A stretch of 40,271 nt of DNA from positions 1 to 40,271 of the forward strand of contig QNCW01000001.1 of NCBI GenBank assembly GCA_003645885.1, in the 5' to 3' direction. The stretch is from Candidatus Latescibacterota bacterium. GTDB taxonomy: Bacteria > Latescibacterota > 4484-107 > B68-G9. Below are positions 15,214-37,324 of the stretch, one piece after another. The notes under the pieces are model-generated. The model was not told the origin of the DNA, did no database searches, and saw nothing but the letters and a program-made list of their open reading frames with translations. The position numbers were made by a program, and so were the translations under genes. The number at the start of each line of letters is the position of its first letter. The stretch's first letter is position 1.

Positions 15214-16704
15214 TCAAAGTTCCCCCTCCGAGAAGACCTCGGCCGAGAAGGCCCAGATCTCCGCGTCCGGGCCCTTCCATGCGTCCCTCGGAAGTCCTGC
15301 CTTCAGACAGGTGTGCTCCAGGAACGTCTTGACGTCCCACCCGTATTCGGTGGCGACCTGGGGGAGGAGGAGCCCCTGCCTCCATCCCTTCCTTATTATG
15401 AGCCCGTCCCTTCCTATGACTATGTCCTTTATATCCTTGACCCTCCAGAGGGGGGTGAGGACGGATATCTCTATCTCCAACTCCGGGACCTCCTCGGGCC
15501 TGACAGGTGGGAAACGGGGGTCCTCCAGGGCGGCGGCCCTCGCCATGTCCCTCACAGCCTCCCATAGGGGTTTTATCCCCTCTATGTAACCTATACATCC
15601 CCTCAGCTCCCCGTGCTTCTTCAAGGTTACGAACGCCCCCCTCCTTTCCAGGAGCTTACCGGACTTCACTTGGAACTCGGGGGGAGGTTCGCCCCTCGTC
15701 ACCCTCTCGACCGTCCTGCGGGCTATGGTGAGCAGTGTCCTCTTGTCCTCCTCGCTCAGGCCGAGCTCCACGCCGACCCTCTTCTTCCCCTCCTCACCTC
15801 CGGCCCCGGACCTATACACCGCTATCGCTGAATACCCTACCACATATCCCCCCCTCTCCCCCACCACATCGTTAGAGTTCGTGTGGGTCAAAATCTTGAC
15901 CTTATCGGCCCCAAGTTCCCTCGCCGCCATAAGCATAGCAGCTATAGGACCTCCGCCGCAGGCCTGGTACTCCCCGCTCAGGAGCCCCTGGACGAACCCT
16001 TCCGGATCGAACCTGAGGATGGCCTTGAGCGTCTTCTCGTCCGTCCTGTTACACTCCTCGTAGCTGTACCCGTGGTAGAGGTCCGAGCTTGCCACTATGA
16101 GCACCTTCTTGCCCTTACATGCCCTCACGATGGCATCCGCAAGGTTCCTGCAGGCCCTGAGGTTCTGTTCCCCCATCACGACGGGCACGACCTTGAGGTC
16201 CGGTATGGCGACCTGAAGGAAGGGGAGTTCCACCTCCACGGAATGTTCGTACCTGTGGCCGGCATCCGAGAAAACTATATCGTCCTCGGGGGAGAGCATC
16301 TTCTTGGCTACATCCTCCGCTATGGGCACCACCCCTAAGGGCGTCTCGTACCCCCCCTCAGCCCAGATCGAGCTTCCCCTTAAAAATTCCCTGTGGCTCG
16401 GTCCTATGACCACCACAGCGTCGTAGCGTTTCCCCATGACCTCTTTGTACGCCACGGCGGCCGTGGGACCTGAATAGGGGTATCCTGCGTGGGGACAGAC
16501 GAGGCCTACTATCTCCCCTTCCACAGGGACCTTCCTTGCGTTCTCCAACATTTCCTCTACCATCCTCCTGAGGGTGGTGGGGTCGGCCGGATAGAACTGG
16601 CCAGCTACCGCCGGCTTGCGGACCTTGGCGGAGGCTTCGACGCTCACGCCGAGGAGCAACGCAGATAGGATGACGAAGCTAACCAACGAACACTCTATCC
16701 ACAT
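15214..16704 (-). CDS. Fusion protein: Memo-like (AmmeMemoRadiSam protein B) N-terminal domain plus AMMECR1 (protein A) C-terminal domain, with a predicted N-terminal signal peptide
   Basis: Memo motifs: AGQFYP, CPHAGYPYSGP, IGPSH, SSDLYHG, ACGGGPI. After a Gly/Glu/Lys linker (about nt 15760-15810) come AMMECR1 motifs GAFVTLKK.GELRGCIGY and EDPRFPPV. The N-terminus MWIECSLVSFVILSALLLGVSVEASA-KV looks like a Sec signal. AAGGAGG SD. Confidence 0.88.
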   Translation of the reverse strand: MWIECSLVSFVILSALLLGVSVEASAKVRKPAVAGQFYPADPTTLRRMVEEMLENARKVPVEGEIVGLVCPHAGYPYSGPTAAVAYKEVMGKRYDAVVVIGPSHREFLRGSSIWAEGGYETPLGVVPIAEDVAKKMLSPEDDIVFSDAGHRYEHSVEVELPFLQVAIPDLKVVPVVMGEQNLRACRNLADAIVRACKGKKVLIVASSDLYHGYSYEECNRTDEKTLKAILRFDPEGFVQGLLSGEYQACGGGPIAAMLMAARELGADKVKILTHTNSNDVVGERGGYVVGYSAIAVYRSGAGGEEGKKRVGVELGLSEEDKRTLLTIARRTVERVTRGEPPPEFQVKSGKLLERRGAFVTLKKHGELRGCIGYIEGIKPLWEAVRDMARAAALEDPRFPPVRPEEVPELEIEISVLTPLWRVKDIKDIVIGRDGLIIRKGWRQGLLLPQVATEYGWDVKTFLEHTCLKAGLPRDAWKGPDAEIWAFSAEVFSEGEL

Positions 16705-16725
16705 ATCGCCCTCCTTGTAAAGTTC

Positions 16726-17859
16726 CTACTTCCAAACTCCCGGTATCTCCCTGCCGCAGTGTACACAACGTCCGTCCCTCAGGCCCTCGAGCTCGGTCAT
16801 GTACCCTATCCTGTATATAAGCCTCCTTCCACAGGAAGGACAATATGTGCTCTCGGCTTTGTGCCCCGGGACGTTCCCTATGTACACGAAGTTGAGCCCT
16901 TCACCCTTGGCTATCTTCCACGCCCTCTCCAAAGTCTTAACGGGGGTGGGGGGTAGGTTACGAAGTTTGTACTGGGGGAAGAACCTCGTAAAGTGCAGGG
17001 GGACGTCCGGCCCGAGGTTCCCCATTATCCACCTGCACATATCTCTTATCTCGTCCGGGGAGTCGTTGAGCGTAGGGACCACGAGGTAGACCATCTCGAA
17101 CCATATGCCTATCTCCTTGAGGAGGACCAAGGTGTCCAGAACAGGTTTGAGGTGACCGTGGCAGACGTTCCTATAGAACCGCTCGGTGTAGGCCTTGAAA
17201 TCTATCTTCACCGCGTCCAGGACATCGCAGAGCTGCCTCATGGGCTCAGGGTTTATGTAACCGTTGGATATCATCACGCTGCGTACGCCCCTTTTGTGGC
17301 CCTCCACGGCGCAGTCGTACATGTACTCGTAGAAGATCACGGGCTCTGCATACGTGTAAGCTATGCTTTCGCATCCCGTGTAATAGGCGGCCCGGGCTAT
17401 CTCCACAGGGGAGGCTATGTAGTCGGTGCTCTGCTCCGGGCGGATCTGAGATATCTGCCAGTTCTGGCAGAACTCGCACTCCATGTTACATCCGACCGTG
17501 GATATGGAGAAGGCCTTGGTGCCGGGAAGGAAGTGGAACAGGGGCTTCTTCTCTATGGGGTCCACGTGCCATGTGCAGGGCTTGCCGTAGACGAGGGTGT
17601 AGTACGTGCCTCCCCTGTTCTCCCTGACGCCGCAGTATCCCCTCTCCTGGTCGTCTATGACGCACTCCCTCGGGCAGAGCACGCAGCGGATCTTCTTGTG
17701 GGGAAGCTTTTCGTAATGTCTGGCCTCGGTCAAGGACTCATCTGCGGGGTCGTCCTCCCTGGGGAAGCGGGGGAAGTACGAACGAACGAAACCGGGAAGG
17801 AGCGTGGCAGCGGACGCTGACAGTGTGGCCTTGACGAAGCTGCGCCTGGTCCAGAGCAT
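16726..17859 (-). CDS. AmmeMemoRadiSam-system radical SAM enzyme (PFL-activase-like) with a twin-arginine-type N-terminus
   Basis: Radical SAM CNMECEFCQN (CX3CX2C). The N-terminal Cys cluster is CVLCPRECV..GYCGVR. The C-terminal zinc-ribbon-like motif is CPSCG..CVHCG. The N-terminus MLWTRRSFVKATLSASAATLLPGFV matches T-R-R-x-F-x-K plus an h-region. I prefer ATG 17859 over the track's GTG 17868. Both keep the RR motif. Confidence 0.9.
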   Translation of the reverse strand: MLWTRRSFVKATLSASAATLLPGFVRSYFPRFPREDDPADESLTEARHYEKLPHKKIRCVLCPRECVIDDQERGYCGVRENRGGTYYTLVYGKPCTWHVDPIEKKPLFHFLPGTKAFSISTVGCNMECEFCQNWQISQIRPEQSTDYIASPVEIARAAYYTGCESIAYTYAEPVIFYEYMYDCAVEGHKRGVRSVMISNGYINPEPMRQLCDVLDAVKIDFKAYTERFYRNVCHGHLKPVLDTLVLLKEIGIWFEMVYLVVPTLNDSPDEIRDMCRWIMGNLGPDVPLHFTRFFPQYKLRNLPPTPVKTLERAWKIAKGEGLNFVYIGNVPGHKAESTYCPSCGRRLIYRIGYMTELEGLRDGRCVHCGREIPGVWK

Positions 17860-17871
17860 ATACCTCACCCC

Positions 17872-18279
17872 CTAAAACTTTATCTGCATCGCCCTAGGGG
17901 GACAAGCCCTTATGCACGCCTCACAAGCTATGCACTTGGAGCTGTCGAAGGAGACGAGCATGGTCTCCCTGTCCAAACTCAAAGCCCCAGTGGGACACAT
18001 CACAACGCACACACCACAATGGGTACACTTACCCTCGTCCCTATACACATCCTCTCCGAAGGCCTGTATGTGAACCCCCAAACCCTTGAGGTAGGATATG
18101 CCGGACTCGAGCGCCCGAGGCTCGCCGGAAAGTTCGAAGACCAATACTCCCTCCTCCTGTGGGCTTATCTGTGCCTTCAGGATGTTGAAGGCCAGGTCGT
18201 AGTCCTTGACCAGCCTGTAGATTATGGGCTTGTCCACAAGGTGGGCGGGAAACCGAAGCACGAGCTTTCGTGAGGTCAC
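17872..18279 (-). CDS. NIL-domain / 2x[4Fe-4S] ferredoxin-domain protein
   Basis: An N-terminal NIL-like domain (KPIIYRLVKDYDLAFNILKAQI..VLVFEL.G) is followed by CTHCGVCVVMCP and CIACEACIRACP. I place the start at GTG 18279 (GGAGG SD, GTGA overlap with the upstream stop) rather than the track's 18381, which overlaps the upstream gene by 106 nt. Confidence 0.85.
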   Translation of the reverse strand: MTSRKLVLRFPAHLVDKPIIYRLVKDYDLAFNILKAQISPQEEGVLVFELSGEPRALESGISYLKGLGVHIQAFGEDVYRDEGKCTHCGVCVVMCPTGALSLDRETMLVSFDSSKCIACEACIRACPPRAMQIKF

Positions 18280-19010
18280 CTTACCTCCTTCGCCCTTGTG
18301 AGCCTGAGGTCTCCCAGGACTCCTAACTTGTCCCCTAAGACCACCATCGCTCCCCTCACGCCATCTATCCTTAAGGCCCACTTTATGGCCTCGGATATTT
18401 CTTCCGGTTCCCGGACCCTGTTTCCTAATGCGGTGGCCACAGCGTCCGCCAAGGCTCCACCTTCGGCCACCACCACTGCAGCGTCGGCCCTGCCGAAGCT
18501 CAGGGAATGTCCCACGGTGCCCGAGGAGGTGCAGACCGAGCAGGGGGTCTCCTCTGGCTTTATTTCTAAGGCCAGCTTTCCCGAAAGAGGGGAACCTCCT
18601 GCAAGTATCCCTACCCTCCGTGGACGGGAAAGCGAGAGGAATATGTCCCCACCGTTCTCCACTATGACCTCGCCCGAAAGCTCACAGAGCCTCCTTCCCA
18701 CGTGTTCGGCTATCGCCCCGGCCACGGCCGCCATAGGCCCCACCTCGGCCTTCTTCCCAGCCTCCGCCATCTCCTTGACCAGCTGAGGGGCATCTTCGCC
18801 GACGGGATAAGGGGTCAGGGCCCGGAGGAAGCCCGGGTCCCTTCGTATGTACCTCGCCAACTGCCTCCTCGCCTCCCTCAGGGTCCTGAGGGCTTCCTCT
18901 GAGAGGTCTTCTGAGGCCCTTATCCAGAGGTCGCTCTCCCCCAGGACGACCCTGAAGGTGCGGAGACCGTCGTCCGGGACCTTCTCCCTGTAGCCCCTCG
19001 GCTCATACAT
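18276..19010 (-). CDS. UPF0280 / COG2122 ApbE-like family protein
   Basis: Features seen: GPMAAVAGAIAE, IVENGGDIFL, and S.GTVGHSLSFG.ADA, as I remember them from archaeal UPF0280 proteins. 8-nt overlap (ATGTATGA) with the DUF362 stop. Confidence 0.78.
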   Translation of the reverse strand: MYEPRGYREKVPDDGLRTFRVVLGESDLWIRASEDLSEEALRTLREARRQLARYIRRDPGFLRALTPYPVGEDAPQLVKEMAEAGKKAEVGPMAAVAGAIAEHVGRRLCELSGEVIVENGGDIFLSLSRPRRVGILAGGSPLSGKLALEIKPEETPCSVCTSSGTVGHSLSFGRADAAVVVAEGGALADAVATALGNRVREPEEISEAIKWALRIDGVRGAMVVLGDKLGVLGDLRLTRAKEVR

Positions 19011-19959
19011 ATATCACCTCTATGAGGCTCGGATCGGCGTTTCCCAAACGATGTTGAGGGTCGGAAGCTGTAAGGATGTAGTGCGGTTCCCTGCCCGCCT
19101 CCTTGAGGGAAGGAAGGCCCTTCTCCGCCCTCTTCTTCTCTATGATCTGCCAGCCCGTGTAATCCAAAGCTACCACGTCCCTCGAAAGTATCAAAGCCCC
19201 GAAGGGCCACGTCCATTGGGGCATGTAGGGAGGGCCGCCCTCGTACTGGGCGAGAAGACCGTCCAGGATGGTCAGGACTGTCTTCTGCCTTATGAAGGGT
19301 AGGGTGTTGAGGTCCGCTATGTACGGGTCCCCGGCGTTGTCGTGGTATTTGTTAGGGTTGTGGATGGCACCGAAGAAGTTCTTCATACCCAAGGTGACCC
19401 CACATATCCCGTGGTCCTTGAGCACGGGGAGGTTTATGACCTTGGTGCACCGCTCTATCAGGATCCTGCTGAACAGGCTCCCCACCGACATATGCTGTAT
19501 GAGGGCAGGATAATATCCCACCTCGTCGGTGCCGTAGCACTGGATGTCGTTCCCCCCCCTGTTCGTCCTGTACCCCGCCTTCCTGAGGTCGGCGTCCGCC
19601 CTGTCCCATATCACGATGTCCTTGGGCCTCACCCCGGCGGAGATGAGCCTCTTAGCGACGGCGCCCACAAGCTCCTTTCGGGTGGACATCCCCCTCCCTG
19701 CGAGGCAGTTTACCTTGAGCCCCACGACGTCCCCGGGTCCGACCAGCTCGGGCCACACGTCCTTCGCCTTCGCCCCGAAGAGCGCCTCGATCCCTCGGTC
19801 CAGGAGGACCCCGACCGCCTCCTCGTCCAACCTCCCCTTCCCGACGGATACCACCACGCGGGACCTCGTGCCTGCGAGGGCGGGAGGCAGCAACCCCGGA
19901 CCCAGAGCTGCCCCGACCCCTAAGGATATGGCCCGTTTCAGGAACTCCCTTCGGTCCAT
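19003..19959 (-). CDS. DUF362 domain protein with twin-arginine (Tat) signal
   Basis: The N-terminus MDRREFLKRAISLGVGAALGPGLLPPALA is a textbook Tat signal. DUF362-like core: GLKVNC, VINLPVLKDHGICGVTLGMKNFFGA, ILDGLLAQYEGGP, RDVVALD. I place the start at ATG 19959. The track's 20049 start would read through the promoter. Confidence 0.85.
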   Translation of the reverse strand: MDRREFLKRAISLGVGAALGPGLLPPALAGTRSRVVVSVGKGRLDEEAVGVLLDRGIEALFGAKAKDVWPELVGPGDVVGLKVNCLAGRGMSTRKELVGAVAKRLISAGVRPKDIVIWDRADADLRKAGYRTNRGGNDIQCYGTDEVGYYPALIQHMSVGSLFSRILIERCTKVINLPVLKDHGICGVTLGMKNFFGAIHNPNKYHDNAGDPYIADLNTLPFIRQKTVLTILDGLLAQYEGGPPYMPQWTWPFGALILSRDVVALDYTGWQIIEKKRAEKGLPSLKEAGREPHYILTASDPQHRLGNADPSLIEVIYV

Positions 19960-35059: not shown

Positions 35060-37324
35060 ATGATGGTAGTCCTACTTTCCTTCGTCGTGGCATGGGGTTC
35101 GGATATGAACATAACGGAGATCGAAGTAAGAGGGGCCGCCAGGACGGACACGGCCTTGATATTGGAGGCGTCCGGACTTTCCCCGGGGCAGGAGGTCACG
35201 CTGGAAAAGGTCCAAAGCGCCATCCGCAGGCTTTACGCCCTCGGACTCTTCAAGGATGTACGCATATGGGCCGACGAGGACTCCGGGGGCGTTAGCTTGA
35301 CCGTAGAGGTCGAGGAGAACCCTGTCCTGACCGAAATATCCTTCGAGGGCAACAAGGCCCTCAAAGAGCGGGAGCTCAGGGATGCCCTCCACTTTACGGA
35401 AGGGCAGGTCGTAAGCTCCAAGGTGATACACGACGGCCGGAGGTCCATAAAGGAACTGTACGAGGACAAGGGATACCTCTCAGCGGAAGTCAGGGCCGTG
35501 GTGACCCCTGCAGGGAAGGGCAGGGTCCGTCTTACGTATCTGATAGACGAGGGGAAGAAGGTCAGGGTGAAGAGGATCAACTTTATAGGAAACCAGGCCT
35601 TCGAGGACGGGAAGTTGAAGAAGCTCATGAAGACCAAGGAAGCTCGGTGGTGGAGGAAGGGGGAATTCAAGGAGGAGGTCTACAGAACCGACTTGGATAA
35701 GGTCCTGCAATTCTATAGGAACCACGGGTACAGGGACGTTCAGGTGGTGAAGGACAGCATATATTACGACAGTTCGAAGCGCAACCTCTTCGTAGATATT
35801 TACCTCAAAGAAGGCCCTCGGTATCGCTTCGGCAAGGTGACATGGGAGGGCAACGAGGCCCTAACCGACGAGCAGTTGAAGGCCCTTCTGGATTTGAAGG
35901 AAGGGGAAGTGTACGACGAAGGAAAGTACGATCGTATCTATCAGAGCCTCCTTTCCGCGTACCAGGAGAAGGGGTACATATCGGCATCCGTCGACAGACG
36001 GGAGAGCATAAGGGGGGACACTCTGGACGTCCACTTCGTGATCCAGGAGGGCCGGCCGTCCAGGGTGCACAGGATAATGATAGCCGGTAACCGCAAGACC
36101 AAGGACAAGGTGATACTCAGGGAACTGGTCCTGGTTCCGGGGCAGGTCTTTCGAAGGTCGGACCTCGAAAGGAGCATAAGGAACCTATACATGCTCAACT
36201 ACTTCAGCAGCGTGACGCCGGAGCCCAAGTTCTTGGAGGACGGAGATGTCGACCTCCTCATAAGGGTGAAGGAGAAGCCCACGGGCCAGGCGTCCGTGGG
36301 CCTGGGATACAGCGAGCAATATAAGCTCATAGGTACGGTCGGCCTCATGATCCCGAACCTCTTCGGAAACGGCCAACAGTTGGACCTCACCTGCGATCTC
36401 GGAAGGCGTAGGGAGGTCCTGAGGTTCGATTTCACGGAACCCTGGCTACTGGACACCCCGACGAGCTTGAGCTTGGAAGTTTACCACATCCACGATAAAT
36501 CTTACACCGACTTCCACGAAAGGCGTACTGGCCTTTCGCTCAGGCTCGGGAGGAGGCTGAGCTGGCTGGACGAGTACTCCCGCCTCTACGGAAGGTACAG
36601 GCTCGAGGAGGTGGACTACCCCTACATAGCCCCGGATTCGGTCTACACCGACCCGTACGGCCTCAGGAAGAGAAGTTGGCCCGAGAGGGCCAGCAGTGCG
36701 GGAATTACCTTCCTCAGGGACAGCAGGGACCTCCCGGAGTTCCCCACGAAAGGTTCCATCCTTTCCCTCTCCGGTGAGTGGGCCGGCGGTCTCCTCGGGG
36801 GGGAGGAAGCGTATCAGAAGTACAAGCTCGACTGGGAGGTCTTCGTGCCAACGTTTTGGAAGTTCGTGCTCGTCCTGAGGGGAAGGGCGGGGTTGGTGGA
36901 CGAGCTGGGTGGGAAGGGATACATCCCGTTCGGGGAAAGGTTTATGCCGGGAGGGGTGAGTTGGGACGGGATGATAAGGGGATACGAAGACAGAAGCGTA
37001 GTGCCGTACGAGGACGGAAAGCCCATGGGTGGGAGGACGGCCTTGATCCTCAACCTGGAGTACCAGTTCCCCATCGTGGAGGGGCAGCTCTACGGGCTTT
37101 TGTTCGCCGATGCTGGGAACTCCTGGAGGGATTGGAAGGATGCGCATCCGCTTAAGCTTAAGCGTTCTATAGGATTAGGGGTAAGGCTTGTGATGCCCCC
37201 TATGGGCACCGTAGGGTTCGACTTCGGGTACAGGTTGGACGAAGTTAGGGACGATAGGGGAAAGGTTCTGCAGCCCAAGGGTAAGTGGAACACCCACTTC
37301 CAGCTCGGAAGGCAATTCTTCTGA
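35060..37324 (+). CDS. bamA: Outer membrane protein assembly factor BamA
   Basis: Five POTRA-like repeats (I.EI.V.G....D..IL, I.FEGN.A, INFIGN.AF, V.WEGN.AL, I.IAGN.KT). The C-terminal beta-barrel has VGLGYS, RGY and a terminal aromatic (..LGRQFF). Confidence 0.92.
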   Translation: MMVVLLSFVVAWGSDMNITEIEVRGAARTDTALILEASGLSPGQEVTLEKVQSAIRRLYALGLFKDVRIWADEDSGGVSLTVEVEENPVLTEISFEGNKALKERELRDALHFTEGQVVSSKVIHDGRRSIKELYEDKGYLSAEVRAVVTPAGKGRVRLTYLIDEGKKVRVKRINFIGNQAFEDGKLKKLMKTKEARWWRKGEFKEEVYRTDLDKVLQFYRNHGYRDVQVVKDSIYYDSSKRNLFVDIYLKEGPRYRFGKVTWEGNEALTDEQLKALLDLKEGEVYDEGKYDRIYQSLLSAYQEKGYISASVDRRESIRGDTLDVHFVIQEGRPSRVHRIMIAGNRKTKDKVILRELVLVPGQVFRRSDLERSIRNLYMLNYFSSVTPEPKFLEDGDVDLLIRVKEKPTGQASVGLGYSEQYKLIGTVGLMIPNLFGNGQQLDLTCDLGRRREVLRFDFTEPWLLDTPTSLSLEVYHIHDKSYTDFHERRTGLSLRLGRRLSWLDEYSRLYGRYRLEEVDYPYIAPDSVYTDPYGLRKRSWPERASSAGITFLRDSRDLPEFPTKGSILSLSGEWAGGLLGGEEAYQKYKLDWEVFVPTFWKFVLVLRGRAGLVDELGGKGYIPFGERFMPGGVSWDGMIRGYEDRSVVPYEDGKPMGGRTALILNLEYQFPIVEGQLYGLLFADAGNSWRDWKDAHPLKLKRSIGLGVRLVMPPMGTVGFDFGYRLDEVRDDRGKVLQPKGKWNTHFQLGRQFF

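Follow-up and report, generated by a model that had tools for sequence, protein, structure and literature searches.

The window analyzed here is a stretch of DNA of 40,271 nucleotides (nt) from a Candidatus Latescibacterota bacterium (GenBank assembly GCA_003645885.1, contig QNCW01000001.1, positions 1 to 40,271). Its reverse strand carries a gene for a single polypeptide, here termed B/A, that joins two components of the AmmeMemoRadiSam system, the Memo protein (protein B) and the AMMECR1 protein (protein A), behind a hydrophobic N-terminus. The gene of the third component, a radical S-adenosylmethionine (SAM) enzyme with a leader of the twin-arginine translocation (Tat) type, lies directly upstream. 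Memo and AMMECR1 are both conserved over a range that extends from archaea to humans. In humans, AMMECR1 is among the genes of a contiguous-gene deletion syndrome, and MEMO1 has been implicated in the motility of cancer cells. To our knowledge, no reaction has been assigned to Memo or AMMECR1, and we likewise know of no function for AmmeMemoRadiSam (NCBIfam). The features of the B/A gene and of its immediate partner are as follows.

15214..16704, reverse strand: B/A fusion open reading frame (ORF), 496 amino acids (aa), uninterrupted (ORF listing of the window)
16710..16716, reverse strand: Shine-Dalgarno sequence AAGGAGG of the B/A gene, 5 nt 5' of the ATG (read from the sequence)
16627..16704, reverse strand: N-terminal leader, aa 1-26, MWIECSLVSFVILSALLLGVSVEASA (sequence inspection)
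15814..16620, reverse strand: Memo / AmmeMemoRadiSam protein B domain, aa 29-297 (Pfam, NCBIfam and structure match)
15760..15813, reverse strand: inter-domain linker, aa 298-315, SGAGGEEGKKRVGVELGL, in which some 10 residues are disordered before the conserved VGV.LGL segment (junction DNA checked against its translation)
15217..15759, reverse strand: AMMECR1 / AmmeMemoRadiSam protein A domain, aa 316-496 (Pfam, NCBIfam and structure match)
16726..17868, reverse strand: AmmeMemoRadiSam radical SAM enzyme (TIGR04337) with the twin-arginine leader MLWTRRSFVKATLSASAATLLPGF; likely start ATG 17859

Architecture and active sites of the fused protein

The original prediction, made from the sequence alone, had described a single 496-aa ORF with Memo motifs followed by AMMECR1 motifs, and all the motifs it quoted were found where it had placed them: VEASAKV at aa 22-28, AGQFYP at 34-39, CPHAGYPYSG at 70-79, IGPSH at 100-104, ACGGGPI at 248-254, LRGCIGY at 367-373, and EDPRFPPV at 394-401. 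Family searches confirmed both of its domain assignments. Pfam returned Memo (PF01875) at aa 30-293 (E=8e-61) and AMMECR1 (PF01871) at aa 326-491 (E=2.5e-58), and in NCBIfam the scores were 278 bits for TIGR04336 (protein B; cut-off 26, model positions 1-270 of 270) and 190 bits for TIGR04335 (protein A; cut-off 99). The upstream gene scored 401 bits against TIGR04337 (cut-off 220) and ends 21 nt from B/A on the same strand, so that the gene cluster holds all three AmmeMemoRadiSam components. The set thus resembles canonical AmmeMemoRadiSam (TIGR04335/04336/04337) in that all three models are well above cut-off, the genes are adjacent, and the motifs are intact; it differs in the joining of A and B into one polypeptide with a leader and in the Tat leader of the radical SAM enzyme. 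Other Latescibacterota (L018-L026, L048-L050) have the canonical form, with separate leaderless genes and a leaderless radical SAM enzyme.

AlphaFold2 modeled full-length B/A with a predicted local distance difference test score (pLDDT) of 92.4 and a predicted template modeling score (pTM) of 0.63; for the mature protein, with a deeper alignment, the pTM was 0.72. The leader (aa 2-19) was modeled as a helix at a pLDDT of about 71, and the linker residues aa 301-307 fall below 50 and are predicted to be disordered. Because the linker is short (about 10 flexible residues), the two domains would be kept close to each other. Gly311, Gly315, and Leu316 near the junction are conserved among the aligned homologues. 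In Foldseek comparisons, the template modeling score (TM-score) was 0.81 to MEMO1 and 0.79 to the AMMECR1 homologue PH0010.

Human MEMO1 (3BCZ, 7KQ8) shares the fold and the His/His/Cys triad with the Memo domain at 24% identity but is a stand-alone, cytosolic iron/copper-binding protein without an AMMECR1 fusion or a leader. MEMO1 binds iron or copper via H49, H81, and C244 (PMC11081632). Alignment to MEMO1 (3BCZ) places the metal triad of B/A at His72, His104, and Cys249, and Asp208/His211 align with D189/H192. For AMMECR1, PMC2034487 gives RGChG and DxR-aromatic as the signature motifs, which are represented here by LRGCIGY with Cys370 and by DPRF (aa 395-398) with Asp395, Arg397, and Phe398. 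The archaeal AMMECR1 homologues PH0010 (1VAJ), MM0484 (1ZQ7), and ST0229 (1WSC) have 38-44% identity to this domain, TM-scores of at most 0.79, and the same RGCxG and DPRF motifs, and a sequence search matched PH0010 1VAJ at E=4e-37; they differ in being stand-alone, cytoplasmic proteins of no known function. Two alignments, of 54 and 106 homologues, show no variation in the Memo triad, Asp208/His211, or the RGCIG and DPRF residues. No known active-site residue is missing, and both domains look functional as judged from their sequences.

The presence of the two domains in one polypeptide, as originally predicted, was borne out by the same architecture at 92, 82, and 81% identity in independent assemblies (Logan, ENA, JGI) and by thousands of distant homologues. 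In a search of 5.8 billion proteins, 7,991 of the 8,000 scored candidates were homologous, the fusion recurs in at least 7,991 protein clusters, and both Pfam domains are present in all 120 listed. A sequencing or assembly frameshift that joined two genes was excluded for practical purposes as the origin of the fusion: thousands of homologues, among them close orthologues in other, independent assemblies, share the uninterrupted architecture and the conserved junction, confident AlphaFold2 folds flank the junction on both sides, and a genome-wide search found no second, separate A or B gene in the source genome. The further statement that the two genes are usually separate did not hold for this clade, and the fusion is not an unusual clue. 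A B gene was found in 88 of 168 Latescibacterota species genomes, and about 36 of 64 high-scoring full-length B genes, judged by open-frame length, are fused. In Balaji & Aravind 2007 (PMC2034487), AMMECR1 is linked to a radical SAM enzyme and to a 'ring-opening dioxygenase', which is Memo, and is fused to the latter. These fusions and the many homologues labeled 'protein B/protein A' by JGI share the B-then-A order of the present protein and lead to the same inference of one pathway with the radical SAM enzyme. The B-A fusion is a very common form, known since 2007, and so nothing new by itself.

Leaders on B/A and on the radical SAM enzyme

The ATG of B/A lies at position 16704, and the seven codons back to the TAG of the upstream gene hold no other start. 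As a strong Shine-Dalgarno sequence precedes this ATG and there is no alternative upstream start, the N-terminus MWIECSLVSFVILSALLLGVSVEASA is part of the best-supported protein, and the hydrophobic N-terminus MWIECSLVSFVILSALLLGVSVEASA/KVRKP is within the best-supported reading frame. The radical SAM and B/A genes happen to share one reading frame, with only the TAG and seven sense codons between them (16702-16731), to which no significance is attached. In-frame TTG and GTG codons occur within the leader, and a true start at one of these (e.g. GTG codon 20) would make B/A a soluble, cytoplasmic, leaderless protein like the fused homologues of similar length that lack a leader, such as P0005 (480 aa). 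However, no Shine-Dalgarno sequence stands before the internal codons, the AAGGAGG is 5 nt before the ATG, and the leader remains open and hydrophobic in the 81-92% orthologues despite its sequence divergence. An internal start is regarded as highly improbable.

N-termini in this analysis were classed by a simple hydropathy and lipobox heuristic. The B/A leader combines an uncharged core of 18 residues with Gly19 and an A-S-A at -3 to -1, and thus shows the hydrophobic core and the small residues at -3/-1 (A-S-A, then K) of a Sec-type signal; its n-region MWIE, with Glu4, holds no Lys or Arg and so lacks the positively charged n-region of such signals. It contains no lipobox L-x-x-C, which would mark a signal peptidase II signal, and no Arg, hence no twin-arginine (RR) motif of a Tat signal. 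The orthologues P0002-P0004 have diverged in leader sequence with hydrophobicity and small -3/-1 residues kept (T-S-A, A-V-A, and V-V-A), and in the 82% and 81% orthologues the uncharged core is longer (22-24 residues versus 18 here). The survey of fusions and leaders that the original prediction had called for found, beside the fused clusters counted above, a hydrophobic leader in 110 of the 150 best-matching representatives of 50%-identity clusters of the fused protein, and 90 of the 120 nearest fused homologues also have one. A lipobox-like ...C motif occurs in 42 of the 150 representatives, and Lys or Arg in the n-region in 102; typical homologue leaders are MRRYIYLTFLISFFLLMGSTAMA/Q and MKPLRLAAVCFIFILISSLQC. 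The lipobox-like motifs appear to be specific for export and are hard to read otherwise.

The radical SAM enzyme of the window bears a near-consensus Tat motif, T-R-R-S-F-V-K. An RR motif was found in 111 of its 120 nearest homologues, and several of the others are visibly truncated gene calls. Radical SAM matches with internal stops were considered as cases of recoding and set aside, the stops being boundary effects and the ORFs intact. Among iron-sulfur (Fe-S) proteins, hydrogenase small subunits and DmsB-type ferredoxins are exported by Tat. The radical SAM enzyme resembles these in joining Fe-S clusters with a leader of the S/T-R-R-x-F-L-K type, the logic of which is export in the folded state; unlike them, B/A has no RR motif and would use Sec.

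The original prediction had noted that the leader of B/A agrees with the Tat leader of its partner, and across genomes the co-occurrence of the two is nearly perfect. Where a leader-bearing B/A protein adjoins a radical SAM gene, the enzyme has a twin-arginine or KR (Lys-Arg) leader in about 42 of 48 pairs; the corresponding number for leaderless B proteins is 0 of 8. Within Latescibacterota, an RR-type radical SAM gene lies directly upstream on the same strand in 10 of 10 leader-bearing fused B/A loci, and for the 8 leaderless, separate B genes with an adjacent radical SAM gene the enzyme lacks an N-terminal extension in 8 of 8. A survey of 80 loci in other phyla covered KSB1, WOR-3, Thermodesulfobacteriota, Ignavibacteria, Zixibacteria, Acidobacteriota, Omnitrophota, Marinimicrobia, Nitrospirota, and others. 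All 58 of its leader-bearing B proteins are fused; next to 33 of them lies a radical SAM gene, with a clear RR leader in about 27. Of the remaining pairs, three have a transmembrane-like leader with a weak or absent RR (L084, L086, L100), two are leaderless (L109, L130), and one is ambiguous (L101). A radical SAM gene within 6 kb was found for 0 of the 22 leaderless B genes in these 80 loci. A genome-wide search of 28 of these genomes, many of which hold 2-6 radical SAM paralogues, added five more adjacent pairs that all obey the rule, one of them with the KR variant. The strongest argument for two functional leaders that point to one compartment is this co-occurrence.

The leaders of the radical SAM enzymes vary in form. 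Those of L084, L086, and L100 (Eisenbacteria and unclassified) are strongly hydrophobic and transmembrane-like, L143 and L164 also have variant leaders, and in some leaders KR replaces RR. A separate observation concerns L161:1-2325 (Latescibacterota), where the radical SAM gene is seemingly split by an insert of about 170 aa with the LAGLIDADG-like motif FLDGYLSGDGH; this insert may be an intein or a homing endonuclease.

Neighboring genes and recurrent partners

Upstream of the radical SAM gene, the same strand carries three further genes.

19003..19959, reverse strand: DUF362 protein with a Tat-type leader, MDRREFLKRAISLG... (PF04015, E=1e-19)
17872-19010, reverse strand: genes for a NIL-domain 2x[4Fe-4S] ferredoxin and a UPF0280 protein (PRK04334), between DUF362 and radical SAM

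The resulting five-gene order, DUF362(Tat) - UPF0280 - NIL-ferredoxin - radical SAM(Tat) - B/A, is common to the window and the same-genus locus L031 and is not found in other families. The NIL-ferredoxin and UPF0280 were therefore rejected as general partners, being confined to this genus (L031) and absent from the other exported-type loci examined. Clustering of neighbors covered 40 exported-type loci, including that of the window. A DUF362 protein of the window's Tat type (DUF362a) is present in 18 of the 39 other loci, mostly directly upstream of radical SAM, and 29 of the 40 hold a gene for a roughly 780-aa membrane protein with a match to 'fused MFS/spermidine synthase' (NF037959). A recurrent order is DUF362a(Tat) - radical SAM(Tat) - B/A(leader) - convergent fused MFS/spermidine synthase - DUF362b, which is seen in L090, L093, L097, L102, L103, L112, L121, L127, L129 (Acidobacteriota), and others.

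In the source genome, the MFS/spermidine synthase genes lie on other contigs, with copies on C9 (C9:42-2321), C20, and C2. On C9 (C9:42-3433), a second radical SAM paralogue (49% identical) with the Tat leader MRSKILTRRSFLQRS... overlaps the start of a 759-aa protein of the MFS/spermidine synthase type, and no B/A gene was found beside this paralogue. A membrane-embedded SAM-type binding fold beside a putatively exported radical SAM enzyme is suggestive.

Site of action and implications

The reading preferred here, with a probability of roughly 0.7, is that B/A is exported by Sec or anchored facing outward and works together with a Tat-exported radical SAM enzyme, either in the periplasm or on the outer side of the membrane. 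B/A would be made as a precursor with a predicted N-terminal Sec-type leader, which most likely carries the Memo and AMMECR1 domains across the cytoplasmic membrane and would then be cut after Ala-Ser-Ala26 or kept as an N-in anchor. The radical SAM partner would be sent to the outer side already folded, with its Fe-S clusters, by its Tat leader, and the fusion would let one leader deliver both domains in fixed 1:1 proximity. From these sequences we infer the export, cleavage, and site of action of B/A, and also that B, A, and the radical SAM enzyme would act on one substrate, 1:1. The pair is predicted to belong to a large exported branch of AmmeMemoRadiSam that extends over many, mostly anaerobic, phyla. 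All B proteins examined from this branch were fused to A. A more specific proposal is only tentative, namely that B/A is the substrate-handling half of an extracytoplasmic radical SAM pathway that modifies a component of the cell envelope, such as an isoprenoid lipid or quinone or a polyamine-type group, with the Tat-DUF362 protein and the membrane protein of spermidine-synthase fold as participants in many genomes. A comparison of Memo systems by Burroughs et al. in 2019 is said to link them to the modification of nucleotide bases and isoprenoids.

Several points weigh against an extracytoplasmic site of action. Outside the cytoplasm we know of no SAM and no low-potential reductant, both of which radical SAM chemistry requires; the source of SAM and reducing power there is the main objection. 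This difficulty would be avoided if the radical SAM enzyme were a maturase that acts on B/A itself, possibly in a single turnover with SAM bound before export, and installs a radical or a cofactor-like modification, in which case the three activities would share no small-molecule or lipid substrate. The next-best family matches of the enzyme are indeed PFL, NrdG, and glycyl-radical activases, and the co-occurrence of the two genes and the fused state of B/A fit a 1:1 relation between an enzyme and its target. However, no glycyl-radical-type or other target motif was identified, B/A has a full metal site and an AMMECR1 Cys cleft and is seemingly catalytic itself, and with its Sec-type leader it would cross the membrane unfolded, so that it could be modified only after export. 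A maturase role is pure inference and is judged distinctly improbable.

The joint export of B/A and the radical SAM enzyme also has to be set against exceptions in the survey. In L109 and L130 a leader-bearing B/A adjoins a radical SAM gene that lacks a leader, and the radical SAM enzyme of L149 (WOR-3) has a Sec-like leader, MCKILRLAVFILLIIMLAQAQ, without RR, which is an exception to the rule; a leader of this kind is hard to square with the export of a folded Fe-S protein. Leaderless fused forms exist (L003-L006, L041-L046), and therefore the fusion alone does not imply export. TatC was not found in the source assembly, which is 84% complete. Both same-genus genomes and 15 of the 18 relatives tested do have TatC, and its absence from the source assembly is probably due to the incompleteness of the latter.

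The remaining points against export concern the leader of B/A, which is atypical by Escherichia coli rules: it has Glu4 and no Lys or Arg on the N-side, its core is long enough for a membrane span, and Lys27, Arg29, and Lys30 sit directly behind the predicted cleavage site. A strict positive-inside rule would favor an N-out/C-in orientation, in which the N-terminus is an uncleaved reverse signal-anchor and both domains are tethered to the cytoplasmic face of the membrane. The short N-tail with Glu4 and without Lys or Arg, the three basic residues (KVRKP) directly behind the core, and the uncharged core of 18-24 residues in B/A and its three closest orthologues all fit such an anchor. Against it, the basic IRKP segment, which lipobox-bearing members share, is the conserved start of the Memo domain itself, the small -3/-1 residues are kept in all four orthologues, and more distant homologues bear either a classic Sec leader or a lipobox, which does not allow this reading. 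A reverse anchor would also part B/A from the Tat-targeted radical SAM enzyme and Tat-DUF362 protein of the same operon.

The habits of the source genome bear on the same question. In a crude gene call, 36 of 141 proteins with a single leader have no Lys or Arg before the hydrophobic core, and such charge-free leaders are found on BamA/Omp85, two TolC-family proteins, and a cytochrome c peroxidase-like protein. The first of these is encoded in the window, where a TAA in frame and the Shine-Dalgarno sequence AGGAGG fix its start.

35060-37324, forward strand: BamA/Omp85, five POTRA domains and an Omp85 domain, with the leader MMVVLLSFVVAWG without Lys or Arg

Leaders free of Lys and Arg thus serve the exported BamA and TolC-like proteins in this genome, and an uncharged n-region looks like an organism-wide habit. 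The missing charge was set aside as an argument against a Sec signal because BamA, the TolC-like proteins, and other exported proteins share the feature. A longer hydrophobic core reportedly makes up for an absent N-terminal charge, a result attributed to Hikita and Mizushima in 1992. On account of the Tat-targeted operon partners, the conservation at -3/-1, the IRKP segment in lipobox-bearing members, the genome-wide leader habit, and compensation by core length, a reverse anchor is considered unlikely, and a Sec-exported or outward-anchored B/A is retained as the preferred reading.

Unlike the fusion, the branch with export signals is not described in the literature searched. That literature yielded no description of signal peptides on B/A fusions, of Tat leaders on the partner enzyme, or of any radical SAM enzyme as a Tat substrate, and the available part of PMC2034487 does not mention export signals on the Memo/AMMECR1 fusions. 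The B/A result is the corroborating half of the story of an exported radical SAM enzyme and not a separate discovery. If this story is true, a radical SAM enzyme operates where SAM and reductant are not known, which would mean either a new envelope biochemistry or a new use of export signals, and radical SAM chemistry would for the first time be described outside the cytoplasm. The candidate substrates of a large branch whose components all bear export signals would be limited to molecules of the cell envelope, and the exported branch offers many gene sets for biochemistry, some of them from cultured lineages.

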